Below, in pieces: positions 830 through 19,819 of a stretch of 32,000 nt of DNA; the first letter of the stretch is position 1, and every line of letters starts with the position of its first letter. The position numbers were made by a program, and so were the translations under genes. A model generated the notes under the pieces. That model did not search any database. It was not told where the DNA came from and saw only the letters and a list, made by a program, of their open reading frames with translations. This stretch comes from Erysipelotrichaceae bacterium MTC7. Lineage in GTDB: Bacteria; Bacillota_I; Bacilli_A; Erysipelotrichales; Erysipelotrichaceae. The DNA is taken from positions 60,001 to 92,000 of the forward strand of contig LVZN01000023.1 of assembly GCA_001695645.1 (NCBI GenBank). Direction: 5' to 3'.

Positions 830-3337
830 CTATTGTTCTTTTCTTCTTTTCTTATAGGCAATGCAACAAACCACAATGGCACTTAACACAGCGTATATTA
901 ATAGAGTATTTACTGGATTGTTGTCCCCTGTTTTTATACTTGGTAAAGCTTCCAATTCTTTACTCACTGCAGTTTGCGGTAGTTGACGAAACGGTTCATC
1001 CTTCGATTCTTCTTTTGGATCTCCCTTTGGATCATCCTTTGGTTCCTCTTTAGGTTCCTCTGTTGGCACTTCAACTATTTTCTCATTATAAGCTTTGACG
1101 ATAATTGTTTGCGTGGTTTGTGCATCAATTGTAAATTCAAGTTTTTCTGTTGATAACGTGTACCCGTTTGGTGCTTTTGTTTCTACAAAATAGTACGATC
1201 CTTCTTGTAACTTTTCAACTGTTATTTCACCATACATGTCAGTCACATAAGCAACATCATTGAGCTTGATATCATCTTGACCAGTTGCGACTTTGTATAA
1301 ATCAAAGTGTGCATCATCCAATGTTACAGTGTCATTTCTTCCTTCTTCATATTTGATAAGTTTCACATCTACTGTGTTTAACTTTCTGTTATACACGTTG
1401 GTAACAATGGACGCTTGCCCATAGTTTTGAATCACAACTTCAAATACATGCGTTTGACTATCTGGGCTTGCATCCAGTTCATATATGGCATCTTCTACGG
1501 TATATCCGTCTGCTGCTTTCAGTTCTTTCCAATAATAATATCCTGCATCCAAGCCACCAACTTTAGCGGTTCCCCATGGATTTGTGATAACTTCTTTAAC
1601 TAACGTATCATTTTTCGAAGGTGTTGTACCATCTGCAACTTTATATAAACCAAATGTAGATTCTGCAATGGTTTGTTTTACATCTTCATCTTTTGTTGCT
1701 AGATCATATTTCTTAACAGTTGCACTACCCTTAGCATCGCCAACGATAGTACCGCTATACGTACTAAATACAACTTTCTTTTCATCAGATGCTACTGTAC
1801 CATTTTTCCAATACATATTTGCTTGGTTTGTAACATTTTCGCCTTCCATCATTCCATCAGCAAAACTTGTTTTCAACTTAATGGTATATGCAGGAATCAC
1901 ATAACCTACTTTTGCAAATTCCGTGTCTAAATACTTGGCTTGTTCTTTTGTAAATATTTCTTCATCTTCCTTAACACCATCAACTTCAACTTCTCTTGTT
2001 AGTGATCTTAAATAAGATTCAAACTTTGTTCGCCCTTCAACCTCTTCCATATTTTTCACACATGTAAGATCTGTAAATTTAACTCCAGTGAACGTATCAT
2101 CTGTACTATCTCCTAAATCCCCTAAATAAACAAGTACGGTCGTACTCACCAGACCATTCGTATCTAATTCTTTATAAATTAAAATCGTTTGTCTTTCTGC
2201 TTGATCTAAGAAACTTTCTTTAAGTTCATCATATGCCATTCCAGCTTCAAAGTTATAGCCTTTTTCAGCAAAGGCTTCATTTGACTCCTTATCATATTCA
2301 ATATAAGTAAATAAATCCTTAGTATTCTCATTGTAGAACGTTAGCCAATTGTAAACTTTGTCAGAATATTGTCCAACGTCTCCATTTTCGATACCTTTAG
2401 AAGCATAGTCAATTGGTGTTCCATCTTTTTCGGTTGTTGCATATGCATTTAGTTGCAACTGTACTGTGATGCTTTCCAACGTTTGGTTGAACGTCAGCTT
2501 ATCTTCAACATATGCATTTGCTCTAGCGTTTTTAATCTTGCCTTTATCATCTTTTTGTCCATTGCTTAATGCTGCATAATAATCATAAGCAGGATGCAAT
2601 GTCCAAGTTGCTCTTTTTGCCACATTATCGTAGATACCTTCTTTAAGTAAACCAGGCACTGACTCTTTTGGATTTGCTCCAGTGTCAACAACCACCGGCT
2701 TTTCAGGTGAGGTGATGGGATTATCTTCACCAAAAACGCTTTCTCCATTCACAGTTAATCCAGAATCCATCTCGTACTTCACAATCTTTCCTTTAGCATA
2801 TAAAGAACCTGATCGTACAACGTATGGAGAATCTGGATCATCTCCATGCGGCAAATCACCGATCGTCACTTTCATTACTGTGCGCCCTGTATTTGCATTA
2901 GCATCCACTGTAAAGGTTCCAATTTCTTTGTCGGTTACATCCAATAAAGAAAACGGATTCCCGTTGCCATCCGTGAATAGAAAACCGAATCCTTCTTTGT
3001 CACCAAAGTTTTCTTCTTGAATTTCAAAACTAAATGTATCTCCAGTTTGTAAAAGAAGATATGTGCTATCTCCATCTTTGTATACTGCTTCCCAATCAAT
3101 TTTCAAGCGGATTTGTGTCCACTTGTTTAACTCGATAACGCCACCTTCTGGTTTCGTTACATCATGCCAATCTTTGTTCCAGTCTTCATACTGCAATGTG
3201 ATTGCTTTTGTTGTAATTTTATTTGCCCCTGTCATGTCCTCTAATTCTTCAGCAGCTTGTACACTCATGTTTCCTGCAAAAATAGCAGTGACTAGCATGA
3301 ATATTGTCATTACAACTCCTATTACTTTCTTTTTCAT
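830..3337 (-). CDS. Cell-surface adhesin (835 aa): signal peptide, collagen-binding-like A region, Cna-B/SpaA-type domains, Pro/Lys/Glu-rich stalk, C-terminal sorting-like signal
   Basis: I chose the internal ATG at 3337 (MKKKVIGVVMTIFMLVTAIFAGNMSVQAAEE, a Sec signal) because AGGAGG lies just upstream. The 887-aa track ORF start has no RBS. Cna-B-like motifs: FGLYKVADG...GYYYWKELKAADGYTV and FDLYKVATG...GSYYFVETKAPNGYTL. Tail: ...LPQTAVSKELEALPSIKTGDNNPVNTLLIYAVLSAIVVCCIAYKKRRKEQ. Confidence 0.85.
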   Translation of the reverse strand: MKKKVIGVVMTIFMLVTAIFAGNMSVQAAEELEDMTGANKITTKAITLQYEDWNKDWHDVTKPEGGVIELNKWTQIRLKIDWEAVYKDGDSTYLLLQTGDTFSFEIQEENFGDKEGFGFLFTDGNGNPFSLLDVTDKEIGTFTVDANANTGRTVMKVTIGDLPHGDDPDSPYVVRSGSLYAKGKIVKYEMDSGLTVNGESVFGEDNPITSPEKPVVVDTGANPKESVPGLLKEGIYDNVAKRATWTLHPAYDYYAALSNGQKDDKGKIKNARANAYVEDKLTFNQTLESITVQLQLNAYATTEKDGTPIDYASKGIENGDVGQYSDKVYNWLTFYNENTKDLFTYIEYDKESNEAFAEKGYNFEAGMAYDELKESFLDQAERQTILIYKELDTNGLVSTTVLVYLGDLGDSTDDTFTGVKFTDLTCVKNMEEVEGRTKFESYLRSLTREVEVDGVKEDEEIFTKEQAKYLDTEFAKVGYVIPAYTIKLKTSFADGMMEGENVTNQANMYWKNGTVASDEKKVVFSTYSGTIVGDAKGSATVKKYDLATKDEDVKQTIAESTFGLYKVADGTTPSKNDTLVKEVITNPWGTAKVGGLDAGYYYWKELKAADGYTVEDAIYELDASPDSQTHVFEVVIQNYGQASIVTNVYNRKLNTVDVKLIKYEEGRNDTVTLDDAHFDLYKVATGQDDIKLNDVAYVTDMYGEITVEKLQEGSYYFVETKAPNGYTLSTEKLEFTIDAQTTQTIIVKAYNEKIVEVPTEEPKEEPKDDPKGDPKEESKDEPFRQLPQTAVSKELEALPSIKTGDNNPVNTLLIYAVLSAIVVCCIAYKKRRKEQ

Positions 3338-3423
3338 AACCCTCCTTATTTCACACATACAATTGTAATTTTCACCTATTTGCATAGGCAAGGATTCCAA
3401 GGCTTCACTTTTTATTCTGTCAT

Positions 3424-3455
3424 ATAAAAAAGTGCCCATGTGAGAAAACGGCACT
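3424..3455 (-). promoter_or_regulatory. Intrinsic-terminator-like hairpin inside the adhesin 5' leader (candidate attenuator)
   Basis: Minus strand reads agtgcc-gttttctcacat-gggcact followed by TTTTTTAT, about 90 nt upstream of the adhesin ATG. No coding gene ends immediately upstream of it. Confidence 0.45.
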
Positions 3456-3876
3456 GAAAAAGAATAGTTGATATTCGAGTTCCCTTTATTCACACACTTA
3501 CATCTTTTCTACACAACACAATCCCTTGTTTCCTTTATCTACCTTCAAAATAGTTTTAAAAGTAGATAAAGGAAAGCAATCCATAGTAGCAGATTGCTCT
3601 CTGACTTCAGGTTTTATGTGTGTGGAAGTCAAAACCAACCTATACAACAGGGATGTATAAACTTGGTTTCACTTATATAGACTTCCATAAAATAAAAATC
3701 TTCAAAAATTTGATAACTTTTTTTAAAAAAATTTACATTTGCACGCAATGAAGACTTAATGTAGACCAATTACATATACTTTAGTATATTCATAACATAT
3801 GATATTGTCTATATATTTGCCTAAAATCAGTAAATACAAGCAGTAAGTATGTACCTCTTAGCAAAATATGCACAAC

Positions 3877-3922
3877 CAAAAAATAACAATCCTTACGTAG
3901 GGATGTAAGGATTGTTATTTTC
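3877..3922 (-). terminator. Strong rho-independent terminator downstream of the pfl genes
   Basis: Perfect 15-bp stem aataacaatccttac / gtaaggattgttatt with an 8-nt loop. On the minus strand it is followed by TTTTT. T-rich on the plus side too, so possibly bidirectional. Confidence 0.75.
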
Positions 3923-4079
3923 TTCATGTTTACTGTGTGTGTTGAAGTTACAAGGAACATCGTGAGATTTCACTTTACGTTCCTTCACCTACATAGAGGT
4001 TAATGTCTAGCCTATGCTTCGCAAAACGTAAAAAAAACACCAACTGTAAACGTTGATGTCTTTCATATAAACTTTTGTA

Positions 4080-4313
4080 TTACATTCCTTCGTGCATTGT
4101 ACGGTGGATAACATCATCTTGTTGTTCTTTGCTCAACTTGTTGAAGTTAACAGCGTATCCTGATACACGGATTGTAAGTTGTGGATATTTTTCTGGGTGT
4201 GCTTGTGCATCTAATAATGTTTCACGATCAAATACGTTAACATTTAAATGGTGTCCACCACTTTGTGCATATCCATCGATCATTGTTACTAAGTTTTCTG
4301 CTTTGTTGCTCAT
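4080..4313 (-). CDS. Stand-alone glycyl-radical domain protein (77 aa), equivalent to the C-terminal Gly-radical domain of PflB; GrcA/YfiD-like
   Basis: [77 protein letters not shown] carries the PFL/GrcA fingerprint HLNVNV...[19 protein letters not shown] at 4313 lies 8 nt after AGAAGGAAG. The track start at 4322 is a GTG that overlaps this RBS. Confidence 0.85.
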
Positions 4314-4333
4314 TTTTGTCACTTCCTTCTATA

Positions 4334-6340
4334 TTAGTCTTCGTCTTTTCCAAGAGCGTCTGGCACAATTGAGAATGTGTTAGAAATTCCATCACGTGAA
4401 TATTCGTATGGTAATTTTGCAACCGATTCAAGTGAAGCTACCGCACCATGTGTATCACGTCCATGCATTGGGTTCGCTCCTGGTGCAAATGGTTCTCCAG
4501 CTTTACGACCATCAGGTGTATTACCAGTTTTCTTACCATAAACAACGTTTGAAGTAATCGTCAAGATACTCATTGAAGGAACTCCATTACGGTATGTACG
4601 GTGTTCTTTAATCATGTTCATGAATGTTTTTACTAGGTCAGCTGCAATACGGTCAACGCGGTCATCGTTGTTTCCGTAAGTTGGGAATTCTCCTTCAACT
4701 TCGTAGTCAACAACAATTCCATCTTCATCACGTACAGCTTTAACTTTAGCATATTTAATTGCAGATAATGAGTCAGCAACAACTGACAATCCTGCAATAC
4801 CTGTAGCGAAGAAACGACGTACATCGTGATCGTGTAATGACATTTCTAATGCTTCGTATGAGTATTTATCGTGCATGTAGTGGATTACGTTTAATGTGTT
4901 TACGTATAATCCTGCTAACCATGACATCATTTGTTTATATTTTTGCATAACTTCTTCGTAGTCTAAGTATTCTGAAGTTACTGGTTCCATTCTTGGTGAA
5001 ACTTGGATTTTTTTCTTTTCATCAACACCACCGTTGATTGCGTAAAGTAAACATTTAGCTAAGTTTGCTCTAGCTCCAAAGAATTGCATATCTTTACCAA
5101 CACGCATACAAGATACACAACATGCAATTGCATAGTCATCACCCATTTCAATACGCATCAAGTCATCGTTTTCATATTGAATTGAACTTGTTTCAATTGA
5201 AATCTTTGCACAGAAACGTTTGAAGTTGTGTGGTAATCTTGTTGACCAAAGAACTGTTAAGTTTGGTTCTGGTGCTGGTCCTAAGTTTACAAGAGTGTGT
5301 AAGAATCTAAATGAGTTCTTTGTTACTAGTGAACGTCCATCTAGTGACATACCACCAATACTTTCTGTAACCCAAGTAGGGTCTCCAGAGAATAGTTCGT
5401 TATATTCAGGTGTACGCATGAATTTAACCAAACGTAATTTCATAATGAAGTGATCAATCATTTCTTGTGCTTCTTCTTCTGTGATTAATCCAGCTTCTAA
5501 ATCTCTTTGGATGTAAATATCTAAGAATGTAGATGTACGTCCAAGTGACATGGCAGCTCCGTTTTGATCTTTAACTGCTGCTAAGTATCCAAAGTATACA
5601 GCTTGAATGGCTTCTTGTGCTGTTACTGATGGTTCTGAAATATCAATTCCGTAAATCATTGCCATTTCTTTAAGGGCAATTAGGGCACGAATTTGTTCAC
5701 TAACTTCTTCACGATCACGAATTCTTTCTTCTGTCATTGATCCAAGAAGAACTGTATTTAATAAGTTTTGTTTGTCTTCAATTAAGAAATCAACACCGTA
5801 TAGGGCAATACGACGGTAATCTCCAATGATACGTCCACGTCCGTAAGCATCAGGAAGTCCAGTAATAATTCCACAAGTACGTGCACGGCGCATTTCTTGT
5901 GTATAAGCATCGAAAACACCTTGATTATGTGTTTTACGGTATTTTGAGAATACTTCTTTAATTTCTGGATCCAATTCGTATCCGTAAGCTTGCAAAGCAG
6001 TTTCACTCATACGAATACCACCAAATGGTTGTAATGAACGTTTGAATGGTTTATCTGTTTGGAAACCAACGATTTTTTCTAAATCTTTATTTAAGTATCC
6101 AGCCTTGTGGCTTGTTAATGATGATACAACTTTTGTATCTGCATCAAGAACACCTCCTGCAGCTGCTTCTTCTTTATTTAATTCTGTAACTTGATCCCAA
6201 AGCGCTTTTGTTCCTTCTGTTGGGTCTGCTAAGAAACTTTCGTCTCCTTCATATTCTGTATAATTACGTTGGATAAAATCACGAACATTGATTTCGTCAG
6301 TCCAGTTTCCTGAGTTAAAACCTTGCCAACCTTTGTACAT
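4334..6340 (-). CDS. pflB: Pyruvate formate-lyase catalytic large ORF (668 aa), lacking the glycyl-radical domain
   Basis: Start [27 protein letters not shown] at 6340, preceded by AAGGAGAGG. Active-site Cys pair in [15 protein letters not shown]. Ends ...[13 protein letters not shown]-stop, the point where full-length PflB continues into the Gly-radical domain. Confidence 0.9.
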
Positions 6341-6465
6341 ATGTCTACCTCTCCTTCTTAAGGGAAAAACCCTTATCATTTTCAACGAGTGAAGTATAAC
6401 ACGATTGTATATACTTGTCACACTTTATATAAAATCCTATATATTACCATTCCACTACATATCAT

Positions 6466-6519: not shown

Positions 6520-6852
6520 TTAATGCATGTGATTGGCTTTGTATTCTTCCATCTTTGACTCAAGATAAATCTGTAAAATCTCTTCTGGTTGATACCCTTG
6601 AACTTTACTGATTAATTCATCTTTATATAAGAATAGAATTGTTGGAACTTGATGAACATCATAGTAAGTATTGATATCTTTATTGTTTTCATTTGCGTCC
6701 ATCAAATACACTTTTAAGTTGTCAAACTTACGTCCCATACTTTGGACAATCGGTGACATGGTTGTACAATTTGCACAACCATCACCACTAATTAAGACCA
6801 AAGAAAATTCATTCTTTGTAAATTCATTTCTAAAATTATCATTTGTTAACAT
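6520..6852 (-). CDS. Thioredoxin-fold protein with a CANC active-site motif (110 aa)
   Basis: SLVLISGDGCANCTTMSPIV gives a CxxC at the position of Trx WCGPC. HQVPTILFLYKD matches the cis-Pro VPT loop. The start overlaps the pflA stop by 14 nt (6839-6852). Confidence 0.7.
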   Translation of the reverse strand: MLTNDNFRNEFTKNEFSLVLISGDGCANCTTMSPIVQSMGRKFDNLKVYLMDANENNKDINTYYDVHQVPTILFLYKDELISKVQGYQPEEILQIYLESKMEEYKANHMH

Positions 6853-7615
6853 GTTTTTTCACTCCTAAAATTTCTTTTGTTCGATCGATGACTTCCTTTG
6901 TTGGTTTATCCACACCTTCCAAAGGATATGGAATATTCAAATTCTGGTACTTTGCAATTCCCATGGTGTGGTATGGCAAGACTTCGATCTTTTCGATATT
7001 TTTGTAACCACTTAAATATTCATGCAACTTCTCAACATCTTTTTGATCATCACTATATCCAGGTACAAGCACATAACGTACCCATACTGGTTTGTTGTGA
7101 TCTGCTAAGTAGTCCATAAAGTCCCGTGGATTGCGATTATCTTTCCCCGTTAGTTTTTTATGTTTTGCCGGATCGATGTGTTTTACATCAAGTAAAAACA
7201 AATCAGCAACTTCCAATAGTGCATCAAACTTTTCGATTACTGCTGGACTGTCTTTGACAAAGGTAATTCCACTGGTATCAACAGCGGTGTGCAATCCTTC
7301 TTTTTTCAAACGTTTTAATAGTTCTGTCACAAATTCGATTTGGACAAGTGGTTCTCCTCCACTTATGGTCACGCCTCCATCTTTAATGTAGTTTTTGTAT
7401 TTTTTTATTTGGTCGACTACATCATCAACGCTGTAAACATCGCCGCCGCTACCAATCTTCCACGTATCTGGATTGTGGCAATACAAACAACGCATCGGAC
7501 AACCTTGCATAAATACCACAAAGCGAATACCGGGACCGTCGACAGTTCCAAAACTTTCAAAGGAGTGGATTCTCCCTAATACTTGTTCATTCAACTCCAT
7601 CACCTCTTTACACAT
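6839..7615 (-). CDS. pflA: Pyruvate formate-lyase activating enzyme (radical SAM)
   Basis: GRIHSFESFGTVDGPGIRFVVFMQGCPMRCLYCHNPDTW contains the CX3CX2C cluster motif and the PflA N-terminal signature. Start is ambiguous: ATG 7615 sits 2 nt after a TGcTATAAT box, and ATG 7600 (MELNEQVLGRIHSF) sits right after GAGGTG. Confidence 0.9.
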   Translation of the reverse strand: MCKEVMELNEQVLGRIHSFESFGTVDGPGIRFVVFMQGCPMRCLYCHNPDTWKIGSGGDVYSVDDVVDQIKKYKNYIKDGGVTISGGEPLVQIEFVTELLKRLKKEGLHTAVDTSGITFVKDSPAVIEKFDALLEVADLFLLDVKHIDPAKHKKLTGKDNRNPRDFMDYLADHNKPVWVRYVLVPGYSDDQKDVEKLHEYLSGYKNIEKIEVLPYHTMGIAKYQNLNIPYPLEGVDKPTKEVIDRTKEILGVKKHVNK

Positions 7616-7758
7616 GCATTATAGCACAATAAACTTTAAGCTAAATCATTTTGCCCATATATACTATAGCGAATAATTCCCTACTTTATGCCAAAATCTA
7701 TATAGTGTTACAACTTTCTTGCTTCACTTAGACAAATCTTCTTTTTTGCAGTAGATGT

Positions 7759-7787
7759 TTGCCTTTTTTGGCATAGCAATTTATACT
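7759..7787 (+). promoter_or_regulatory. Promoter of pyrR; predicts a leaderless mRNA
   Basis: TTGCCT (7759-7764), 17 nt, TATACT (7782-7787), 6 nt, ATG (7794). No Shine-Dalgarno sequence upstream of the ATG. Confidence 0.5.
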
Positions 7788-7793
7788 TGTTAT

Positions 7794-8303
7794 ATGATGA
7801 AACAAGTACTAGACGCAAATGGTATGCGTCGCTCACTTATACGAATCACCCATGAAATTCTTGAACACAACAAAGGTGTGGATCAAATTGTTTTGGTCGG
7901 TATAGAAACCCGTGGAATTGACCTAGCAAAACGAATTCAAGCAAACCTTGAAGCTTTCGAAAACAAACAGGTCGAATGTTATGGAATCAATGTGTATCCT
8001 TGGCGTGATGATGTAAAAGCTGAAGCAAAACCAACAATCGATTTACCCATCAACAATAAGAAAGTGATTCTTGTTGATGATGTGCTATTTAAAGGAAGAA
8101 CGGTACGTGCCGCCATGGATGCTTTGATGGCAAATGCTAGGCCCAAAGAAATCCAACTTGCCGTCTTGATTGATCGAGGACATCGGGAATTACCCATACG
8201 TGCAGATTACGTTGGAAAAAACATTCCAAGTTCCATCGATGAGATTATCCGTGTAAAAGTAGAAGAACAAGATGGCATCGATGCTGTTGTCATTGAAAAA
8301 TAG
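7794..8303 (+). CDS. pyrR: PyrR, bifunctional pyrimidine operon regulator / uracil phosphoribosyltransferase
   Basis: MMKQVLDANGMRRSLIRITHEILEHNKG..., PRPP-binding loop VILVDDVLFKGRTVRAAMDAL, and DRGHRELPIRADYVGKNIP. The track ORF start at 7755 is a hydrophobic extension inside the promoter. Confidence 0.85.
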   Translation: MMKQVLDANGMRRSLIRITHEILEHNKGVDQIVLVGIETRGIDLAKRIQANLEAFENKQVECYGINVYPWRDDVKAEAKPTIDLPINNKKVILVDDVLFKGRTVRAAMDALMANARPKEIQLAVLIDRGHRELPIRADYVGKNIPSSIDEIIRVKVEEQDGIDAVVIEK

Positions 8304-9976: not shown

Positions 9977-11683
9977 TTATTTATTGATAACTGATTCTAC
10001 GTAAGCTTCAACTTCAGCAGCCGTTTCAAATGTTAAACATTTTTCAGCAACAGCTTCCATTTCTTTCTTATCTAATGAAGTAATCATTTTACGAGCACGT
10101 AAGATTGAAGTCGCTGACATAGAGAACTCATCAAGTCCAAGTCCTAGAAGGATTGCAACTGCATTTGGTTCACCAGCCATTTCTCCACACATACCAGCCC
10201 ATTTGCCTTCTTTGTGCGCTCCATCGATTGTCATTTTAACTAAACGAAGGATTGCTGGGTTATATGGTTGGTATAAGTAACTTACTTTTTCACTCATACG
10301 GTCAGCTGCCATTGAGTATTGGATAAGGTCATTTGTTCCAATTGAGAAGAAGTCAGCGTGTTTAGCAAATTGGTCAGCAAGTACTGCAGCAGCAGGAATT
10401 TCAACCATCATACCAACTTCAATGTTGTCACTTACTTCAACACCTTCAGCAATTAACTCAGCTTTACATTCTTCGAAGAATGCTTTTGCTTCTACGAATT
10501 CATTCACTGTCGCAATCATTGGGAACATAATACATAATCTTCCGTAGATTGATGCACGACATAATGCACGTAATTGTGTTCTGAAGATATCTTTTCTATC
10601 TAAACATAGACGAATTGCACGATATCCTAAGAATGGATTCATTTCTTCTGGGAATTCAAAGTAAGGAAGTTTTTTATCTCCACCGATGTCTAATGTACGA
10701 ACAACGACACGTTTTCCTTGCATTCCTTCAAGTACCATTTTGTATGCGATGAATTGTTCATCTTCTGTTGGGAAGTCTTGTGAGTTCATGTACAAGAATT
10801 CTGTACGGTAAAGTCCCACACCTTCTCCACCATTTTCAAGAACACCTTCAACATCTTTTGGTGTACCGATGTTTCCAGCAAGTTCTACATGGTGTCCATC
10901 TTTTGATACTGATGGTTGGTCAACTAATACTTTAAGTGCTTCTTTTTCTTCTTCGTGAGCAACACGTTTAGCTTCGTATTCCACTTTTTGTTCAGCCGTA
11001 GGATCTAAAATTACATCCCCTTTAATTGCATCAAGGATAACTTCTTGACCGTGTTTTGCTGTTTCAAGGATTCCAGCACATCCAACAACTGCAGGAATTT
11101 CTAAACTTCTTGCCATAATTGCCGAGTGACTTGTTCTACCACCAATTTCAGTAGCAAATCCTTTTGTATATTTTTTATTTAACTGTGCTGTGTCAGATGG
11201 TGTTAAATCGTATGCTACGATTACAACTTCTTCGTCGATAGCCGTTAAATCAGGAATTTGAACTCCTAATAAGTTTGCTTTTAAACGTACGGTAACATCT
11301 TTAATATCCGCTGCACGTTCACGCATGTAAGCATCATCCATTGATTCAAACATTGAAACATACATACTTGCAACACTATCAGCTGCGTATTCTGCATTAC
11401 ATTTGTCTGAGTTGATTTGTCCTTCAACAGCACCAATGAATTCTGGGTCTTGTGCAACCATTAAGTGGGCATCAAATACAGCAAGTTCTTCTGCGCTTAA
11501 GTTTGATGAAGCTCTTTCTTTAATAGCTTCAATGTCCTTAACCGTTTGTTCAACTGCAGCATTTAATTTTGCAATTTCCTCTTCTGGGTTTGCTTCTTTC
11601 TTTTCGATTTTCATTTCTGGCATTTCAAGTTTGTAGACTTTAGCAATCGCTACACCACTTGACGCCGCAATACCTTTTAACAT
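9977..11683 (-). CDS. ptsI: Phosphoenolpyruvate-protein phosphotransferase (PTS enzyme I)
   Basis: Start [19 protein letters not shown] at 11683 with GGAGGA upstream. Phospho-His region [24 protein letters not shown]-utilising C-terminal motifs [12 protein letters not shown] and MCGEMAG. Confidence 0.95.
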
Positions 11684-11721
11684 TTTGCATCCTCCGAATC
11701 TCTTATTAATCTCTAATGTCA

Positions 11722-11749
11722 ATTATACCAAACTCATTCCTAAAATCAA
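11722..11749 (-). promoter_or_regulatory. Candidate sigma-A promoter of ptsI
   Basis: Minus strand: TTGATT, 16 nt, TGgTATAAT (extended -10), about 38 nt upstream of the ATG. Confidence 0.55.
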
Positions 11750-11766
11750 ACAAGTTATAGCACTTT

Positions 11767-11799
11767 TGAAACCGTTCACATATTCGTGACATCTGTCAC
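11767..11799 (-). promoter_or_regulatory. Two adjacent operator-like palindromes upstream of the ptsI promoter
   Basis: Minus strand: TGTGA-cagatg-TCACg, a near-perfect TGTGA-N6-TCACA. It is followed by aTGTGAAcggtTTCAaaa, which matches cre (TGWAANCGNTNWCA) at 13 of 14 positions and also resembles a Rex box (TTGTGAA-N4-TTCACAA). Confidence 0.35.
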
Positions 11800-11818
11800 A
11801 AAAAAAGGAAAAGACAAT

Positions 11819-12496
11819 TTATGCTTTCCCTATTCTTTCATTCTCATTCATTTTTAAGATTGCATCGCAAGCTTCTGACATTGTATCAACAATCATATCT
11901 GCCTCACTTTGATTAATGCCAAAGTTATAATCTTTGATGGCAATGACAAACATACCAGCCCGTTTTCCCGCCTTGATTCCATAATACGAGTCCTCGATTA
12001 CCACACACTGTTCTGGTTGTAAGGAAAAGTGAGCTGCACAAGTTAGGTAGATTTCAGGATTTGGTTTACTGTCTTTAAACATTTCACCAGAAATGACCCA
12101 ATCCAAATAGGGATACAAGTTGCAGTTTTTTAAATTTTGTTCCAATGATTCTTTGCGTGAAGAACTTGCAACAGCCACATACATACCATGATCTTTCAAT
12201 CGTTGGAAAGCTTTTGGAACATCAGGAAACATAATCTCCTTGTAGTTCAACTTACGCACATGTGCACGGTGTTCCCATAAGTGTTCGCGAAAGACTTCAT
12301 ATGAATACGGTGCATTTGCATGTTCATAAACCTTATGCCACAAATCCATCTGTGGTGATGAACCAATCAAGTTTTTTAGTTCTTGCTCATCATACGGTAA
12401 TTCCATTTTCTTCATAAATTTCTCATTGGATTCCACCATTAACACTTCTGAGTCAACAATGACACCATCGAAATCACTAAATATCGCTTTTATCAT
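11819..12496 (-). CDS. HAD-superfamily hydrolase (beta-phosphoglucomutase / sugar-phosphatase-like)
   Basis: N-terminal nucleophile motif IFSDFDGVIVDSE, VAVASSS, and VVIEDSYYGIKAGKRAGM. Confidence 0.8.
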   Translation of the reverse strand: MIKAIFSDFDGVIVDSEVLMVESNEKFMKKMELPYDEQELKNLIGSSPQMDLWHKVYEHANAPYSYEVFREHLWEHRAHVRKLNYKEIMFPDVPKAFQRLKDHGMYVAVASSSRKESLEQNLKNCNLYPYLDWVISGEMFKDSKPNPEIYLTCAAHFSLQPEQCVVIEDSYYGIKAGKRAGMFVIAIKDYNFGINQSEADMIVDTMSEACDAILKMNENERIGKA

Positions 12497-12530
12497 AATT
12501 TCATTTTACACCTTTTTTACTAAATTGAAA

Positions 12531-12558
12531 GTAAGGTAGAGAATTATCCCTACCTTAC
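12531..12558 (-). terminator. Hairpin between murQ and the HAD gene (partial terminator or processing site)
   Basis: 9-bp stem gtaaggtag / ctaccttac with a 10-nt loop. On the minus strand it is followed by TTTCAATTT. Confidence 0.35.
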
Positions 12559-12562
12559 ACAT

Positions 12563-13453
12563 TTACTTTATATTTCGTATATGTCCTTTGCTTGCTTCAA
12601 GTAAAGTTTCAGCTTCAGTTGCGTCACATTGATGTAAAATCATAACAATTGCAACTTTCACTCGATTTCCACTTGCCGCAATTGCTTGTTCAATGACTTC
12701 ATCACTTGCATCTGTTACTTCTTTAATGATGTTCTTTCCTCTTTGAACAAGTTTTTTGTTTGATAGTTTTACATCGACCATCAAGTTTTCATAGGCTTTT
12801 CCTACTCCAACCATCGCTCCTGTTGAAATCATATTTAAGATTAACTTTTGCGTGGTTCCTGCTTTCAAACGAGTTGATCCGGTTAAGATTTCTGGACCAG
12901 GTACTGCTTCAATTGCTAGTTTTGCAACTGCACCTATCTCACTGTTTTTATTACATGCAATTGCAACGGTATGACATCCAATTTCATTTGCATATCCTAG
13001 TGCTTCAATTACATATGGTGTTCTTCCACTTGCTGCTAAACCAACGATAAGATCTTGTTTGTTTATCTCAATGCGTTTTAAGTCTTCAACACCTTCACTT
13101 AATGAATCTTCACTACCTTCTTTTGCTTTTACAAATGCACTATCTCCACCAGCAATTAAGCCAATAACTGTGTCATAAGAAACGCCAAAGGTTGGGGGAC
13201 ATTCCACAGCATCAAGTACACCTAAACGTCCCGATGTTCCTGCACCCATGTAAATGATTCGTCCACCGTTATTTAATGCTTCAATTCCCCACGTAATTGC
13301 TTGTGCAATTTCAGGTAGTACTTTTTCTATCGCTTCAGGAACTTTTTTGTCTTCCTCATTCATTTTCTTTGCAAACTCTAGTGGTGACAAAACATCCAAA
13401 TCCATCGTATCTGGATTTCTTTGTTCCGTTGTTAATTTTGTTAAATCTATCAT
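12563..13453 (-). CDS. murQ: N-acetylmuramic acid 6-phosphate etherase
   Basis: LTTEQRNPDTMDLD, SIS-domain GAGTSGRLGVLDAVECPPTFG, and GSTRLKAGTTQK. RBS AAGGAG. Confidence 0.9.
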   Translation of the reverse strand: MIDLTKLTTEQRNPDTMDLDVLSPLEFAKKMNEEDKKVPEAIEKVLPEIAQAITWGIEALNNGGRIIYMGAGTSGRLGVLDAVECPPTFGVSYDTVIGLIAGGDSAFVKAKEGSEDSLSEGVEDLKRIEINKQDLIVGLAASGRTPYVIEALGYANEIGCHTVAIACNKNSEIGAVAKLAIEAVPGPEILTGSTRLKAGTTQKLILNMISTGAMVGVGKAYENLMVDVKLSNKKLVQRGKNIIKEVTDASDEVIEQAIAASGNRVKVAIVMILHQCDATEAETLLEASKGHIRNIK

Positions 13454-13484
13454 GCGTACTCCTTACCGAATAATGTAGTCTACT

Positions 13485-14186
13485 CTATTCCTTTTCAGAA
13501 AACTTAGCAACTTCAGTAGCGAAACGTTTTGTTAGTATTTCTGGACGCGTAATACTCGTTCCAACTACCACAGAATGCGCTCCACTTTCCAATGCCATTC
13601 TCGCCTCATTAGGTGTTTCAATTTTTCCTTCTGCGATAATAGGTGTATTTGTAAACGCCGCTATGTCTTCAATTAACTTCAAGTTTACAGACGTGACATT
13701 CGAACTTTCACTCGTATATCCAGAAAGTGTAGTTGAAAGTATATCAAATCCAAGTGTATCAGCATATTTTGCCTCTTCTAATGTTGAAATTTCTCCCATC
13801 ACCAAGACATCTGGATAATTTTGTTTAATTTTTAATACTATGTCCTTAATGTTCTCCCCATTAGGTCTAGCCCTTTTTGTTGCATCAAGAGCGATAATTT
13901 CAATACCAACTTCTAGTATTTCTACTGCACTCTCATATGTTGGTGTGATATAAACTTCACAATCGTCACGAAATTGTTTATTTATTCCGATTAATGGTAA
14001 ATCTACTTTTTCTTTAATCGCTAATAAATTATCTTTTCCAGTTGCACGAATACCAACTGCACCACCTTCTTTAGCAGCAGTAGCAAATGCTGCCATGATT
14101 GATGTGCCATACATCGCCCATCCAACACGAGCTTGACATGAAACAATCAACCCACCTTTGATTTCTTTCATTATTTGATTTTTCAT
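13485..14186 (-). CDS. nanE: Putative N-acetylmannosamine-6-phosphate 2-epimerase
   Basis: GGLIVSCQA..., LPLIGINK, VYITPT, IALDATKRARP, STTLSGYT, IIAEGKIETP and VVVGTSITRP follow the NanE pattern. The ATG abuts the stop of the upstream PTS gene. Confidence 0.85.
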   Translation of the reverse strand: MKNQIMKEIKGGLIVSCQARVGWAMYGTSIMAAFATAAKEGGAVGIRATGKDNLLAIKEKVDLPLIGINKQFRDDCEVYITPTYESAVEILEVGIEIIALDATKRARPNGENIKDIVLKIKQNYPDVLVMGEISTLEEAKYADTLGFDILSTTLSGYTSESSNVTSVNLKLIEDIAAFTNTPIIAEGKIETPNEARMALESGAHSVVVGTSITRPEILTKRFATEVAKFSEKE

Positions 14187-15779
14187 TTAGAACATCCCAA
14201 TCATCTTTCCAACAATTCCAAGAATAAAACTTACAATTACACAAATGTACATTCCTTTTTTGTTTTTCATTAGTAATTGGTAGAATCCCAAAGTAATCAA
14301 TAAAGGAATTAAGCATGGCAAAATTGAGTCTAATAATTCTTGAACAACTATTTCTTTTTCTCCAAAAGTCCATACATAAGCAACTGGTGCTTTTACAAAT
14401 CCTACAATCATCGCACCAACAACCATCATTCCGACAATTGTTGCACCTTGTACAAACTTATCAATCAAGTTACCTTCTTTCATACGGGCAACAATGCTTG
14501 TTCCTAGAGCATACCCGTGTTTAATAAATAACCATCTTGATCCTACGTTTAAAATCAAGTTAGGAACAATAAAGATAATTGGTCCTAAAATGCTACCATC
14601 TAATGCAAGACCTGCTCCAATAGCAGCAAATACCGTCATAAAGGTTGCCTTAAATACAGAATCTCCAATTCCTGATAAAGGACCCATCAACGCAGCTTTT
14701 GTAGAAGAAATTGCTTCTCCTGTAATTGGTTTTCCTAACGCTCTTTGTTCCTCAAGTGCTAATGACACACCCATTACAGCATTTCCTGTGTATGGATGAC
14801 AGTTAAAGAACTCATTGTGACGTGTTAATGCTTCTGTCAAATCATCTTGATTTGGATAAAGTTTCTTAAGTGCAGGAATCATTGCAAACGCAAACCCTAA
14901 ACTACAGTAACGTTCATAGTTAATACTAGTCATCGAGAAGAATGAACGGAAGAATGTAGAACGTAACTCTTTTTTTGTAAGAATATGTTCAAGTTCTTCT
15001 GGAGCACTTGATCCACCATCATCATCTAAATCAAATTCATCTTTTGGTTCGTTTTTCTTTTCAAAGATGAACATTGCTGCTGCAATACCAAATCCGAGCA
15101 ATGAAACTGGTAGAACTGCTAAATTAACATACGTAGCTAATACGAAGCCAATTAAGAAGAATGGCCAATATTTTTTCATATCCATCATCTTCAATAGCAT
15201 TGCCATACCAACAGCTGGTAAGATTCCTGATGCGACCTTCATTCCATCTGTGACGATAGCAGGTAAACTTGCAACAACATTGTTTACAAAATCACTACCA
15301 AAGTATACTGCCAAAAATGACGGAATAAAGAAAACAATAAAGAATATCGGTAATCCCGCTAAGTGAGCAAATTCTACTTTACGGATTTCACCTTTTGCTA
15401 AATATGTATCTGCACGGTGCATAATAATGATGTTAATGTTCCATGCAAACATAATAAGTAATTGAGCAAGCATTCCGATTGGCAATGCCAATGTGATCCC
15501 TACTTCAGGATTACCACCGTTTTGAATGGCAAACACTGTTGAGAGCATACCTGCAATTTGCGCATTTGGTGGTACACTACCCCCAATAGGCAAGATACCC
15601 ATATACATAAGTTCAACACTACCACCTACAATAAGTCCAGTTTGAACATCTCCTAAAATTAATCCAATTAATGGTCCTGCGAAAATCGGACGTGAAATCA
15701 TCCAATATCCGTAACCATAATTCTCAGTTATTACTATTCCAATAAATACACTTAGTAATAACGCAGTTACTAATGACAT
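14187..15779 (-). CDS. PTS mannose/sorbose-family EIIC and EIID fused in one 530-aa polypeptide
   Basis: The N-terminal half is EIIC-Man-like (ISRPIFAGPLIGLILGD...GGSVPPNAQIAG). An acidic linker (EKKNEPKDEFDLDDDGGSSAPEE) follows. The C-terminal half is EIID-like (LTKKELRSTFFRSFFSMTSINYERYCSLGFAFAMIPALKKLYP...). RBS GAGGGAA. Confidence 0.85.
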   Translation of the reverse strand: MSLVTALLLSVFIGIVITENYGYGYWMISRPIFAGPLIGLILGDVQTGLIVGGSVELMYMGILPIGGSVPPNAQIAGMLSTVFAIQNGGNPEVGITLALPIGMLAQLLIMFAWNINIIIMHRADTYLAKGEIRKVEFAHLAGLPIFFIVFFIPSFLAVYFGSDFVNNVVASLPAIVTDGMKVASGILPAVGMAMLLKMMDMKKYWPFFLIGFVLATYVNLAVLPVSLLGFGIAAAMFIFEKKNEPKDEFDLDDDGGSSAPEELEHILTKKELRSTFFRSFFSMTSINYERYCSLGFAFAMIPALKKLYPNQDDLTEALTRHNEFFNCHPYTGNAVMGVSLALEEQRALGKPITGEAISSTKAALMGPLSGIGDSVFKATFMTVFAAIGAGLALDGSILGPIIFIVPNLILNVGSRWLFIKHGYALGTSIVARMKEGNLIDKFVQGATIVGMMVVGAMIVGFVKAPVAYVWTFGEKEIVVQELLDSILPCLIPLLITLGFYQLLMKNKKGMYICVIVSFILGIVGKMIGMF

Positions 15780-15797
15780 ATAGTTCCCTCTATCTTT

Positions 15798-16262
15798 CTA
15801 AATTAGTTTCATTAAATCTTCACTTGAATCTGAAGGTGTAGTTCGTATATCAAGTGCAACACCATTAGCATCTAACTTTTTGAAGTCTTCAATCATCGCA
15901 TCATCAACGTATACGGTTTTTGAAAGCTGACGTCGTCCTTCTTTAAAGTAAATACCTCCCACATTAATTGAGTCGAATGCAACTCCATTGTTCATCATTT
16001 TAACAAGAACTCCTGGTTCTTTTACAACGATGAAGAAACGCTTATTTTCGTTTCTTTCTAAAAACTTTACTGCTTTTTCATCATCAACAACTAAGCATTT
16101 CAAACCTGCGGGGCAAGCCATTTCTAATAATGATTTTTGAAAATCATCTTTAGATACTTCGTTATCAACAACCATTACTACGTCTACTTTATACGCAGTG
16201 GTCCAAGCAAAAGCAACTTGGCCATGAATTAATCTTTCATCAATTCTTGTAATTGTAATCAT
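15798..16262 (-). CDS. PTS mannose/sorbose-family EIIB
   Basis: MITITRIDERLIHGQVAFAWT contains the phospho-His of EIIB-Man. RBS GGAGGA. At 154 aa there is no fused EIIA domain. Confidence 0.9.
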   Translation of the reverse strand: MITITRIDERLIHGQVAFAWTTAYKVDVVMVVDNEVSKDDFQKSLLEMACPAGLKCLVVDDEKAVKFLERNENKRFFIVVKEPGVLVKMMNNGVAFDSINVGGIYFKEGRRQLSKTVYVDDAMIEDFKKLDANGVALDIRTTPSDSSEDLMKLI

Positions 16263-16291
16263 TTGGTATCCTCCATTTTCTTTACACCTTC

Positions 16292-16319
16292 ATCATAAAC
16301 TAATGAAACTATATGTCAA
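16292..16319 (-). promoter_or_regulatory. Promoter of the amino-sugar PTS operon, with a GTTTCAT half-site in the spacer
   Basis: Minus strand: TTGACA, 16 nt (tataGTTTCATtagtt), TATGAT, about 30 nt upstream of the EIIB ATG. Confidence 0.6.
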
Positions 16320-16338
16320 TAAACTAGGCGCATAACGA

Positions 16339-16367
16339 AACAAAGTTTCATATAATGAAACTTTGTT
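16339..16367. promoter_or_regulatory. Perfect 13-3-13 palindrome, a candidate RpiR/MurR operator, overlapping the regulator stop codon
   Basis: AACAAAGTTTCAT-ATA-ATGAAACTTTGTT. The ATGAAAC/GTTTCAT half-site recurs at 16303-16309 inside the promoter spacer. Confidence 0.5.
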
Positions 16368-17202
16368 AATTTGTGATTCGTGTTTTATTTACCTTTTCTA
16401 CTGCTTTATCATAGTCTAGTTGAAATACTAATGCATATAAGACATCCACAATATATAGCTGCGTAATTCGCGAAGCCATTGCACCACTTCTAAACAAAGT
16501 TTCTTTGCTACTCACAGCAATCGATACATCCGCAATTGAAGCTAACGTATTCGATGTACTGCTTGTTATACATATAACATAACATCCATTTTTTTGACAC
16601 TCATTTGCAATCTCAATCATCTCTTTTGTTTCACCACTATATGAGAAGACCATTGCAACATGTTCTGAACTTGAGTTTAATGCTTGTACCCATTGTCTAT
16701 CATTTAGTTGATAGCAAGCAACGTTTTTTCCAATTCGCATAAATTTATATGTAGCATCCAAAGCAACTACATTTGATGCTCCAATACCATAAAAATCGAC
16801 AACCTGAGCTTTATGGATATTTTTAGCAGCCTCAACTAAACTTTCTTCGTTTAAGATCAATCGTGTTTCTTCAATTGAGTGGACATCAATATTCGTAATC
16901 TTATCAATTACTATTTTAGGAGTGTCTTCTCGATTGACGGTTGTTGTATCTAAAACATTCAAATGTACATTTTCAAAACCTTGTAACTCTGAAGCTATCA
17001 TAATTTTGAATTGGTTAAATCCTTTTGCCCCTACTCGCTTACATAGACGAACAACAGTAGCTGTAGACGTAAATGTTTGCTTAGCTACTTCATATATAGT
17101 CATATCTACGATATCTTTAGGGTTTTGTAAAATAAAATCTCTAATTTGCTTCTCTGCTTCAGGAAGATTACGATAATCTCTTAACTTTATAAGTACACTC
17201 AT
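16366..17202 (-). CDS. MurR/RpiR-family transcriptional regulator (HTH plus SIS domain)
   Basis: N-terminal HTH (TIYEVAKQTFTSTATVVRLCKRVGAKGFNQFK) and C-terminal SIS domain (VDFYGIGASNVVALDA..., VFSYSGETKE). RBS GAGGTG. Confidence 0.85.
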   Translation of the reverse strand: MSVLIKLRDYRNLPEAEKQIRDFILQNPKDIVDMTIYEVAKQTFTSTATVVRLCKRVGAKGFNQFKIMIASELQGFENVHLNVLDTTTVNREDTPKIVIDKITNIDVHSIEETRLILNEESLVEAAKNIHKAQVVDFYGIGASNVVALDATYKFMRIGKNVACYQLNDRQWVQALNSSSEHVAMVFSYSGETKEMIEIANECQKNGCYVICITSSTSNTLASIADVSIAVSSKETLFRSGAMASRITQLYIVDVLYALVFQLDYDKAVEKVNKTRITN

Positions 17203-17221
17203 GTTTCACCTCGTTTGTTTC

Positions 17222-17250
17222 ACTATAACAAAGTGTATATTATTTATCAA
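17222..17250 (-). promoter_or_regulatory. Candidate promoter of the RpiR-family regulator
   Basis: Minus strand: TTGATA, 17 nt, TATAGT. Confidence 0.5.
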
Positions 17251-17254
17251 ACAT

Positions 17255-17278
17255 TAAAAAAACAGCTCACGCTGTTTC
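17255..17278 (-). terminator. Terminator of the EIIA-Glc gene
   Basis: Minus strand: aacagc-gtga-gctgtt followed by TTTTTTT, directly after the stop codon. Confidence 0.7.
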
Positions 17279-17279
17279 A

Positions 17280-17759
17280 TTATGCTACGTTAATACGGTC
17301 TTCTTCTGCAAGTTCACATGGACCAGTTTTTACTTCTACACTTTGTCCATCTAAATTTAAGAAAATAACCATGACATCAGTTGAAGGTACTTTTGGTGCA
17401 ATTGCTTGCAGATCCATCAAGGCAATTGGTTCTCCTGCAACGACTTTTTGCCCTTCTTTTACTTTTGACGTAAACCCTTCACCTTTTAGGTTTACCGTAT
17501 CAATACCCATGTGTACCATGATTTCTTTTCCATCATTTGCAACCATAGTAATCGCATGTTTTGTCGGGAAAATTGATCCAATGGTTCCGCTTGCTGGAGC
17601 ACAAATTGTTCCTTCTGTTGGTGCTACTGCATATCCATCACCCATGGCTTTGCTAGCAAATACTTGATCTTCTACTTCTGTAATTGGTTTAAGACTTCCT
17701 TTTGCGACTGTCACAATTCCCTTCTTTGCTTCTACTTTTACTTTCTTTTTAAAAAACAT
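17280..17759 (-). CDS. crr: PTS glucose-family EIIA (Crr-like), stand-alone
   Basis: VFASKAMGDGYAV, FPTKHAITM and IMVHMGIDTVNLKGEGF carry both conserved His residues of EIIA-Glc. RBS AGGAGGA. Confidence 0.9.
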   Translation of the reverse strand: MFFKKKVKVEAKKGIVTVAKGSLKPITEVEDQVFASKAMGDGYAVAPTEGTICAPASGTIGSIFPTKHAITMVANDGKEIMVHMGIDTVNLKGEGFTSKVKEGQKVVAGEPIALMDLQAIAPKVPSTDVMVIFLNLDGQSVEVKTGPCELAEEDRINVA

Positions 17760-17802
17760 CTTGTCCTCCTGTGCACTTCATTGTTTTAAAACTAACTCTA
17801 GT

Positions 17803-18342
17803 TTAACACAAAAATCCACTTTTTTTAAATGATGGATCAAAGGTAAGTAAGTCACATTCCACGGCTTGTCGTGGGATCACATAGCGACCATCTTTTTTCA
17901 CTGGATTTTCTGCAAGATCCAAACTTACATTTATGACAAGTTTGCTATTTAAGTCAATTTCCCATGTTCGCATATTTTGTGCACTTCGCATGTATTGCTG
18001 CATGACACCAAGCACTTTTCTTGATGTCGTTTTGTGAATATACAAATGTTGCTTGTGACTAAAGTCCAAATACATGGCAACATGGTAGTCATCCAATCCT
18101 TGTAGTTTTGTTGCAGTCAGCAAAGCTTGTTGCCACAACCATTCAAGATTTCGTAGTTCAACTTCACATACTCCCTCTAACACTAAGGGATAGTAGGTGC
18201 GCTCGTGGACAAAAATGACACGATAACTATCCTGCAACTCCACAATGTTACAATACCACGAAAACAGTGAATTGTAGTCCACTTGGATTTCTTCGCAGAC
18301 AACAACATGTTTTAATACCTTCTTCGTGCAAAAAAAGTTCAT
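17803..18342 (-). CDS. Conserved hypothetical cytoplasmic protein (179 aa)
   Basis: Good RBS (GAGGTG). MNFFCTKKVLKHV...LFSWYCNIVELQDSYRVIFVHERTYYPLVLEGV. From memory, the N-terminal pattern resembles a widespread Firmicute DUF family that starts M..HCTKKLL...LFSWHANL. This is unverified. Confidence 0.5.
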   Translation of the reverse strand: MNFFCTKKVLKHVVVCEEIQVDYNSLFSWYCNIVELQDSYRVIFVHERTYYPLVLEGVCEVELRNLEWLWQQALLTATKLQGLDDYHVAMYLDFSHKQHLYIHKTTSRKVLGVMQQYMRSAQNMRTWEIDLNSKLVINVSLDLAENPVKKDGRYVIPRQAVECDLLTFDPSFKKSGFLC

Positions 18343-18373
18343 CCAGTCACCTCGTTTTCATCATAACATGATG

Positions 18374-18398
18374 AAAAAAAGAGGCAAGAAGTTGCCTC
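18374..18398 (-). terminator. Terminator of the phosphofructokinase gene
   Basis: Minus strand: gaggcaa-cttc-ttgcctc followed by TTTTTTT. Confidence 0.75.
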
Positions 18399-18446
18399 GA
18401 TTTATTTTATAATTATTTTGTTTTGTATCTTATTATGAAAGTAAGA

Positions 18447-19664: not shown

Positions 19665-19819
19665 TTCTAAAGTCCTCCTGTAATTATACAATACCCTAAT
19701 ATATTACCATTTGCCTAACCGCTTTTCAATAAAACTTGAGATTTCTTTCACGAACTTTGAAAAGTATGTATAATATTTCTATGACAAGTTCAAAACAACA
19801 ACGAAATTGGTGGATGATC

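Follow-up and report, generated by a model that had tools for sequence, protein, structure and literature searches.

Pyruvate formate-lyase encoded as a catalytic body and a separate glycyl-radical gene: a probable two-subunit enzyme in Erysipelotrichaceae bacterium MTC7 and its relatives

Pyruvate formate-lyase (PFL) is the founding and most widespread glycyl radical enzyme. Textbooks, like the June 2026 review of glycyl radical enzymes, assign the PFL radical domain to the catalytic chain and treat separate radical proteins as enterobacterial emergency spares. Here we describe a locus of Erysipelotrichaceae bacterium MTC7 in which the PFL catalytic body and the radical domain are encoded by two consecutive genes, which probably specify a functional, obligate two-subunit PFL. 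The locus lies in a 32-kb stretch of DNA (the window); positions below are those of the whole stretch, and the split-PFL genes are all on its minus strand.

The closest described system is Escherichia coli PflB (PDB 1H16/2PFL) with its activating enzyme PflA. The likeness is extensive: the barrel is 67% identical, the Cys-Cys pair, the Arg176/Arg435 equivalents and the RVSGYAV motif are present, and pflA is in the locus. In E. coli, however, the radical domain is the C-terminus of a 759-residue chain, whereas here the counterpart of residues 678–759 is a separate product. A small stand-alone carrier of the PFL radical loop is known in GrcA/YfiD (PDB 6OWR; TIGR04365). GrcA has 127 amino acids (aa) including a disordered N-terminal half of ~60 aa, whereas the window protein has 77 aa, lacks that half and carries an extra helix. 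Moreover, GrcA has a complete PflB beside it and comes into play only once damage has occurred, whereas the PFL partner in the window never had a radical domain. Y06I of phage T4, reportedly described by Wagner et al. in 2001, is said to be a further stand-alone example of the GrcA kind. In E. coli, PflA activates the free YfiD/GrcA radical domain, GrcA passes the radical in trans to C419 of PflB, and GrcA restores formate production by PflB-G734A in vivo (PMC12338860). An engineered E. coli pair, truncated PFL (tPFL, residues 1–695) plus YfiD, reaches the full activity of the wild type after radical installation (Andorfer et al., 2021; PMC8683613). It differs from the present pair in being artificial and cut 16 residues further downstream; the natural split precedes the helix before strand beta10.

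Small polypeptides also accompany the glycyl-radical catalytic subunits of HPAD (gamma), BSS (beta/gamma) and MASS (beta/gamma/delta), but these are Fe-S or rubredoxin-like and never radical carriers, whereas the small window protein is cysteine-free and radical-bearing. The June 2026 review lists small subunits only for HPAD, BSS and MASS, and spare parts only in the form of YfiD/GrcA. In the full-text literature including that review (subscription-only papers being outside the scope), we found no description of a natural split PFL whose sole radical domain is a separate subunit, nor of GrcA3, the NCBIfam family that the small protein matches best (see below). The pieces are already catalogued and named; the two-subunit reading appears to be undescribed in the literature searched.

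The large ORF runs from the ATG at 6340 to the TAA at 4336–4334 (4334–6340, minus strand) and encodes 668 aa ending in LGKDED. It is deposited in GenBank as OCN04512.1, labelled 'formate acetyltransferase'. Pfam recognised a PFL-like domain (PF02901) at residues 15–602 (719 bits) followed by positions 1–50 of the 106 of Gly_radical, and TIGR01255 scored 1143.2 bits against a cutoff of 994.2 over model positions 2–664 of 744. Residues 1–668 align to mature E. coli PflB residues 7–679 with 67% identity. The catalytic Cys pair C407/C408 (codons 5122–5117) corresponds to C418/C419 of the E. coli enzyme, and the pyruvate-binding arginines R170/R424 to R176/R435. The RVSGYAV glycyl-radical loop is absent from this ORF and is coded by the following one (TIGR01255 positions 665–744). 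A Foldseek search of the PDB retrieved E. coli PFL with a TM-score of 0.84 normalised to the query. All but six of the best 120 matches to the body are 658–673 aa long and four are full-length (741–745 aa); among these 120, the matches named by NCBI are formate C-acetyltransferases, and none of the named full-length ones comes from the same genera. The coordinates, content and C-terminus of this ORF, with the active-site Cys pair, are as an earlier note on this DNA had described them. For the large gene, an in-frame GTG at 6421 yields an alternative call of 695 aa (P0122); relatives conserve the ATG start instead.

The small ORF extends from the ATG at 4313 to the TAA at 4082–4080 (4080–4313, minus strand) and encodes 77 aa (MSNKAENLV...RVSGYAV...HEGM; GenBank OCN04511.1, labelled 'autonomous glycyl radical cofactor GrcA'). 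It consists of the glycyl-radical region only, again in agreement with the earlier note: positions 53–106 of 106 of Pfam Gly_radical fall here, and the full RVSGYAV motif with the G734 equivalent, Gly52 (codon 4160–4158), was found in this ORF alone. Residues 1–77 align to PflB 678–759 with 62% identity. The protein has no cysteine, and only 4 of 78 sampled family members have one. An in-frame GTG at 4322, picked by some gene callers (P0003), gives an alternative 80-aa product (MTKMSNK...); the start conserved among relatives is ATG 4313 rather than GTG 4322. Homologues of ~77 aa form more than 120 clusters, and nearly all of the best 120 matches are 76–91 aa long.

Among NCBIfam models the best match of the small protein, by a wide margin, is NF038360 'GrcA3' (model type 'exception'), with 153.5 bits, just below the cutoff of 158, over positions 4–78 of 78. 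Best match and full-length coverage suggest that the protein belongs to this family, and seven of ten sampled relatives exceed the cutoff (159–171 bits). The name implies a spare part; in the accessible library content the entry consists of the name only, with nothing on a neighbouring PFL that lacks its own radical domain. The GrcA model itself (TIGR04365) scored 95.8 bits against a cutoff of 170 and matched only positions 64–125 of 126; in direct alignment, residues 18–76 correspond to GrcA 68–126 (E = 4e-22). Relative to GrcA, the small protein carries an extra N-terminal helix, DNLVxMIDGY (PflB about 683–694). The earlier note had placed the break where GrcA homology begins. The break is indeed near that boundary but not exactly at it: because the structured GrcA homology begins at residue 18 of the small ORF, the break lies ~14 residues upstream (PflB ~679/680).

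The two ORFs are separated by a 20-nt spacer (4333–4314) holding a Shine-Dalgarno (SD)-like sequence, AGAAGGAAG, at 4330–4322, 8 nt ahead of the ATG at 4313–4311; the separate ORF with an SD of its own, as the earlier note had it, is read directly from the DNA. The ORFs occupy different frames, and a TAG closes the small frame just downstream of the large-ORF TAA, so that a 1–2-nt indel cannot join them; the claim that no single indel would fuse the two thus stands. Large residues 1–668 and small residues 1–77 tile E. coli PflB 7–759 with an overlap of two residues. Fused close relatives read ...GKSEDAKATNLV... over the junction point, also given as ...LGKSEDAKATNLVSLLDGY... where the window has LGKDED and the stop. 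Judged from these alignments, no protein segment is lost at the junction. Three window proteins have exact matches in GenBank MTC7 entries (OCN04511.1, OCN04512.1 and OCN04513.1), and since OCN04511.1 and OCN04512.1 are separate entries, the public record already calls two genes here.

Genomes, one per species, were scanned with the small protein; of the 586 relatives obtained, the best 80 were retained for locus counts. By in-frame upstream walk, the small ORF stands alone in 77 of the 80 loci and is fused in three (Enterococcus canintestini and two Clostridia metagenome-assembled genomes, MAGs). Directly upstream of a separately initiated gene of 76–83 aa, 72 loci have a PFL body whose alignment stops at query residue 665–668. 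The junction table shows an SD and ATG of its own before every small gene; the SDs of the relatives are GGAGG or AAGGAG, at a distance to the ATG as in the window. Spacers range from 1 to 406 nt across loci, and each relative frame (0, 1 or 2) and each stop codon (TAA, TAG or TGA) is represented. Breznakia blatticola DSM 28867, the closest relative with a name, likewise breaks at GKDED-TAA, and its spacer is 23 nt long. Split loci occur in Erysipelotrichaceae, Anaeroplasmataceae/Acholeplasmatales, Christensenellaceae, Lachnospiraceae (Blautia, Dorea, Faecalimonas), Ruminococcus, Oscillospiraceae, Coriobacteriia (Collinsella, Atopobium, Lancefieldella rimae ATCC 49626), Gastranaerophilales and Amygdalobacter indicium. 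The catalytic Cys-Cys pair and the radical Gly are conserved across them. Both genes are under strong purifying selection (pairwise dN/dS, window versus relatives, 0.04–0.13 for the large and 0.07–0.12 for the small gene); saturation of synonymous sites sets in beyond about 80% protein identity. We conclude that the two-gene layout is genuine, ancient and widespread, and that it is under selection. The check proposed in the earlier note, conservation of the stop, ribosome-binding site and ATG in related genomes, was thus carried out across several phyla; the case named there as refuting, relatives with an uninterrupted pflB and this isolate as the lone exception, is not what the relatives show.

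The genes around the split fall into two arrangements. In the window the order is pflA, a thioredoxin-like gene, large, small. The pflA gene (6839–7615, minus strand; 258 aa) encodes the PFL-activating radical-SAM enzyme (TIGR02493, 328 bits; cutoff 231.75) and shares its strand with the split PFL; a co-stranded pflA was observed in 62 of 76 analysed loci, a set that includes the window and the three fused loci. The thioredoxin-fold gene (6520–6852, minus strand; 110 aa) matches Pfam Thioredoxin (E = 4e-12) and scores far under the NCBIfam TrxA cutoffs; its product is OCN04513.1, labelled 'hypothetical protein'. In 26 of 27 split loci of the window's operon type it takes the same place, after pflA and before the large gene, with conserved motifs SG..CANC..P, VPT and GYQPEEILE.W and a CxxC that is mostly C-A-N-C, as in the window. 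This order, with the body ending at LGKDD/ED, defines type A (33 loci including the window). The thioredoxin-fold gene is absent in the fused L041 and L044 and present beside another fused gene, P0191, which is possibly chimeric.

Type B comprises 40 loci, from Blautia, Ruminococcus, Collinsella, Atopobium, Gastranaerophilales and others, in which the genes run large, small, pflA. The type-B body carries an acidic tail of 13–50 aa (DDxVFxGDLDxD...), usually with clustered terminal cysteines (EPDCACCEPN, DCGCC, GCCE), at the 3' end of the large gene (L014, L022–L024, L028, L032, L037, L039, L042, L045, L049–L051, L053, L055, L059, L061, L062, L066, L070, L073, L075 and L078). Long type-B spacers (200–400 nt) hold an extra gene with its own SD, 66–76 aa when trimmed to the ATG and 67–86 aa as first called (L031, L033, L035, L040, L046, L058, L060, L065, L067, L069, L072, L074 and L079; also L085, 5001–5207). 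The N-terminal ~30 residues of its product resemble the small-subunit helix and beta10 (NCBIfam GrcA3 positions 2–32, E = 4e-6 to 6e-5), with C-x(3-6)-A-C-x-x-P-[NT] standing where the small subunit has its Gly loop, and the Cys motif of the type-B tail is related to its C-terminus. Neither Pfam nor NCBIfam has a model for this family, which comprises 196 clusters annotated 'hypothetical protein', one of them in Lachnoclostridium phytofermentans. An automatic count gave a Cys pair, in the tail or in the extra ORF, for 36 or more of the 40 type-B loci; inspection by eye added two. The cultured formate producer C. phytofermentans has a type-B split locus (pflA, cphy2820; PFL, Cphy_2823).

Full-length PFLs of 741–752 aa (P0191/L083; P0224, P0230/L084 and P0233; L041 and L044) are 70–81% identical to the window body. 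In a neighbour-joining tree of the bodies, rooted on E. coli, types A and B separate and the few fused proteins nest inside type A; the tree has no support values and its sample is biased. Fused forms beside split ones suggest repeated fission or fusion. The contig of P0191 has ~3.8-fold coverage, a truncated pflA and trx upstream, a second pflA downstream and a divergent C-terminal third, and this fused gene may be a recombinant or an assembly chimera.

Taken together, we consider it probable that the two genes encode a functional PFL in which both subunits are obligatory. The 668-aa protein would be the ten-stranded-barrel catalytic body, with the Cys-Cys pair and no glycine-radical loop of its own, and the 77-aa protein would supply the missing C-terminal module, made up of a helix, strand beta10, the radical loop with RVSGYAV and the C-terminal helix. 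The radical would be installed on Gly52 by PflA from the same cluster; with the small protein docked in the barrel, Gly52 would take a hydrogen from Cys408 of the large subunit, just as G734 acts on C419 within the single chain of E. coli PflB. We infer the two-chain assembly, the activation and the radical transfer from the E. coli work on GrcA and PflB. The free radical domain may also be more accessible to PflA. The large body alone is a stable protein, because PDB chains 38la and 38lb and the E. coli fragment 1qhm (1–624) exist. Chains 38la_A (687 aa, ending in ...SLVPNSLGKE) and 38lb_A (739 aa), both labelled 'Formate acetyltransferase', end at or run past the natural split point, as large subunits of the split kind, and their entries contain no partner chain resembling the small subunit. 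By length and C-terminal sequence they would fit a large subunit plus a 21-aa tag, that of Amygdalobacter (666 aa) for 38la and that of Atopobium (718 aa) for 38lb. Both are missing from the April 2026 Foldseek copy of the PDB and were therefore released later.

Several points temper the two-subunit reading. The SD of the window, GAAGGAAG, is weaker than those of the relatives. A second, full-length pflB may exist elsewhere in the genome; within the 32-kb window, the stretch searched, no second PFL-family gene was found. The AlphaFold model of the large subunit alone, built with 30 homologues, reached a moderate mean pLDDT of 68.5, with low-confidence stretches that include the Cys loop and residues 594–668; an alignment of 30 homologues is too shallow, and the low pLDDT was therefore not taken as a sign that those regions need the small subunit. 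Finally, binding between tPFL and YfiD is too weak for isothermal titration calorimetry and activation of that pair is poor (PMC8683613), so that tight assembly here must rest on other features. The extra N-terminal helix DNLVxMIDGY of the small subunit is a candidate for its basis.

The alternative that survives best accepts the two-subunit enzyme and questions only its purpose: a stop-SD-start cassette may have become fixed in a surface linker with no advantage. We regard such neutral fission as a serious possibility, though an unlikely one. It fits the finding that nothing was lost or gained at the junction, and the fused proteins beside split ones in the unsupported neighbour-joining tree, which suggest easy switching between the two states. 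On the other hand, the split has persisted over very deep divergence, with synonymous sites saturated, and dedicated partners recur beside it (the thioredoxin-like gene in one operon type, the Cys-rich tail or extra small ORF in the other). Recurrent neighbours are also seen beside orphan small genes, those that lack an upstream PFL body. Such copies were found in L081 (6001–6237), L002 (4001–4231), L016 (4001–4231) and L007 (2898–3128). The first is a second small-gene copy in an MTC7-like genome (P0056, 86% identical), which follows three DegV genes and has a Fur-family gene and rubrerythrin ~2 kb downstream; three DegV genes are likewise the neighbours in L007. In L002, an Erysipelotrichaceae MAG, a Fur-family gene and rubrerythrin come directly after the orphan copy, and in L016, an Anaeroplasmataceae MAG, the copy lies directly behind rubrerythrin and SufS/SufU/SufB. 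These neighbours suggest a link to oxidative stress. Depth of conservation, partners and orphan neighbours are all suggestive against neutrality rather than decisive.

An adaptive rationale for the split, in repair or in activation, is put forward only tentatively, as possible but rather less than an even prospect. The weaker suggestion, from the earlier note, is that the small subunit is a replaceable part that makes oxygen damage cheap: cleavage at the radical glycine by oxygen would cost no more than the 77-aa protein, which could be exchanged. The idea fits the published in-trans action of GrcA with PflB, the orphan copies, the conserved thioredoxin-like operon partner and the Cys-pair motif that replaces this partner in type B. 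A broader version, which we consider doubtful, would make the split PFL the core of a repairable radical enzyme kit, with a long-lived barrel, an exchangeable 77-aa cartridge and an obligatory dithiol partner. The partner would be the thioredoxin-like CxxC protein in the window's operon type and, in the other type, the Cys-pair motif carried on the acidic tail of the barrel or on the ~70-aa mimic of the N-terminal half of the cartridge; it would quench the radical ahead of oxygen, or re-reduce the active-site cysteines so that the barrel could be reloaded. The orphan cartridge copies beside Fur-family, rubrerythrin and Suf genes would serve after oxygen stress, and the GrcA of proteobacteria would have branched off from a cartridge of this kind as a derived form.

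A different explanation denies the pairing itself. The small protein might be a GrcA-type spare for a full-length PFL encoded elsewhere, with the 668-aa ORF a decaying or non-radical remnant. The GenBank and NCBIfam names GrcA and GrcA3 point this way, as do the orphan copies apart from any PFL body, and the search for a full-length PFL covered the 32-kb window alone. We nevertheless find this improbable. Selection on the large ORF is strongly purifying, and every catalytic residue checked, namely the equivalents of C418/C419, R176 and R435, is retained. Body and small gene are paired in 72 loci, usually with pflA; the best 120 body matches are almost all 658–673 aa long, and the named full-length ones come from other genera. 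The small protein also lacks the ~60-aa N-terminal region of GrcA and falls well short of the GrcA model cutoff.

The remaining explanations are excluded for practical purposes by the junction statistics together with family-wide conservation and selection. Recoding into one chain of ~745 aa, by programmed frameshift, stop read-through or ribosomal bypass, has in its favour the short spacer (20 nt in the window, 1–4 nt in L003 and L005), but the spread of spacer lengths over all three frames and stops comes with no conserved junction sequence, each small ORF has its own SD and ATG, some spacers contain a whole extra gene, and a -1 shift in the window meets the TAG. A sequencing or assembly error or a very recent pseudogene in the MTC7 isolate, for which only the prior expectation of a single-chain PFL speaks, is countered by the identical truncated large protein and identical small protein in independent assemblies (NCBI, ENA, Logan), by the same break in Breznakia blatticola and by the selection on both ORFs across the family; the split is genuine and no frameshift artefact, as the earlier note had argued.

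Signals for transcription of the probable two-subunit PFL were sought by consensus scan. A promoter-like site at 6421–6393 (minus strand; -35 GTGACA, 17 nt, TG-extended -10 TATACT), upstream of the large gene, had the top score, with 10 of 12 positions; it is a consensus match only, and the total of promoter-like sites across the region is no higher than in shuffled controls. A terminator-like hairpin with a T-run at 4064–4032 (minus strand), 16 nt past the small-gene stop, would terminate a bicistronic large-small transcript. A perfect 19-bp inverted repeat at 3880–3921 on the plus strand (AAAATAACAATCCTTACGT...), followed by a T-rich run, is terminator-like on that strand and positioned between a surface-protein gene and the PFL operon. 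No Rfam family was found across the whole window at gathering thresholds.

Elsewhere in the window, one surface-protein gene (830–3493, minus strand; 887 aa) has SpaA (prealbumin-like) domains and a C-terminal hydrophobic anchor, and another (28286–31948, minus strand; 1220 aa) has eight YDG repeats and one MBG domain. The neighbours at 7755–8303 (plus strand) and 9977–19691 (minus strand) are ordinary sugar-fermentation genes, among them a PyrR-like phosphoribosyltransferase, PTS enzyme I, a fused mannose-family PTS IIC/IID and phosphofructokinase.

If the two-subunit reading holds, a two-chain PFL would be at work in abundant gut and oral anaerobes, among them Blautia, Dorea, Ruminococcus, Collinsella, Atopobium/Lancefieldella and Erysipelotrichaceae. 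Annotation and metabolic modelling are affected, in that bodies of ~668 aa are called complete PFLs and the small genes 'GrcA', which would mask their mutual dependence. The split loci also point to unstudied partners, the thioredoxin-like protein and the ~70-aa family with the Cys motif. A naturally split PFL would offer a clean system for studying how the activase reaches a buried glycine and how the radical domain enters and leaves the barrel, and it would make the idea of a reduced cost of oxygen damage directly testable.

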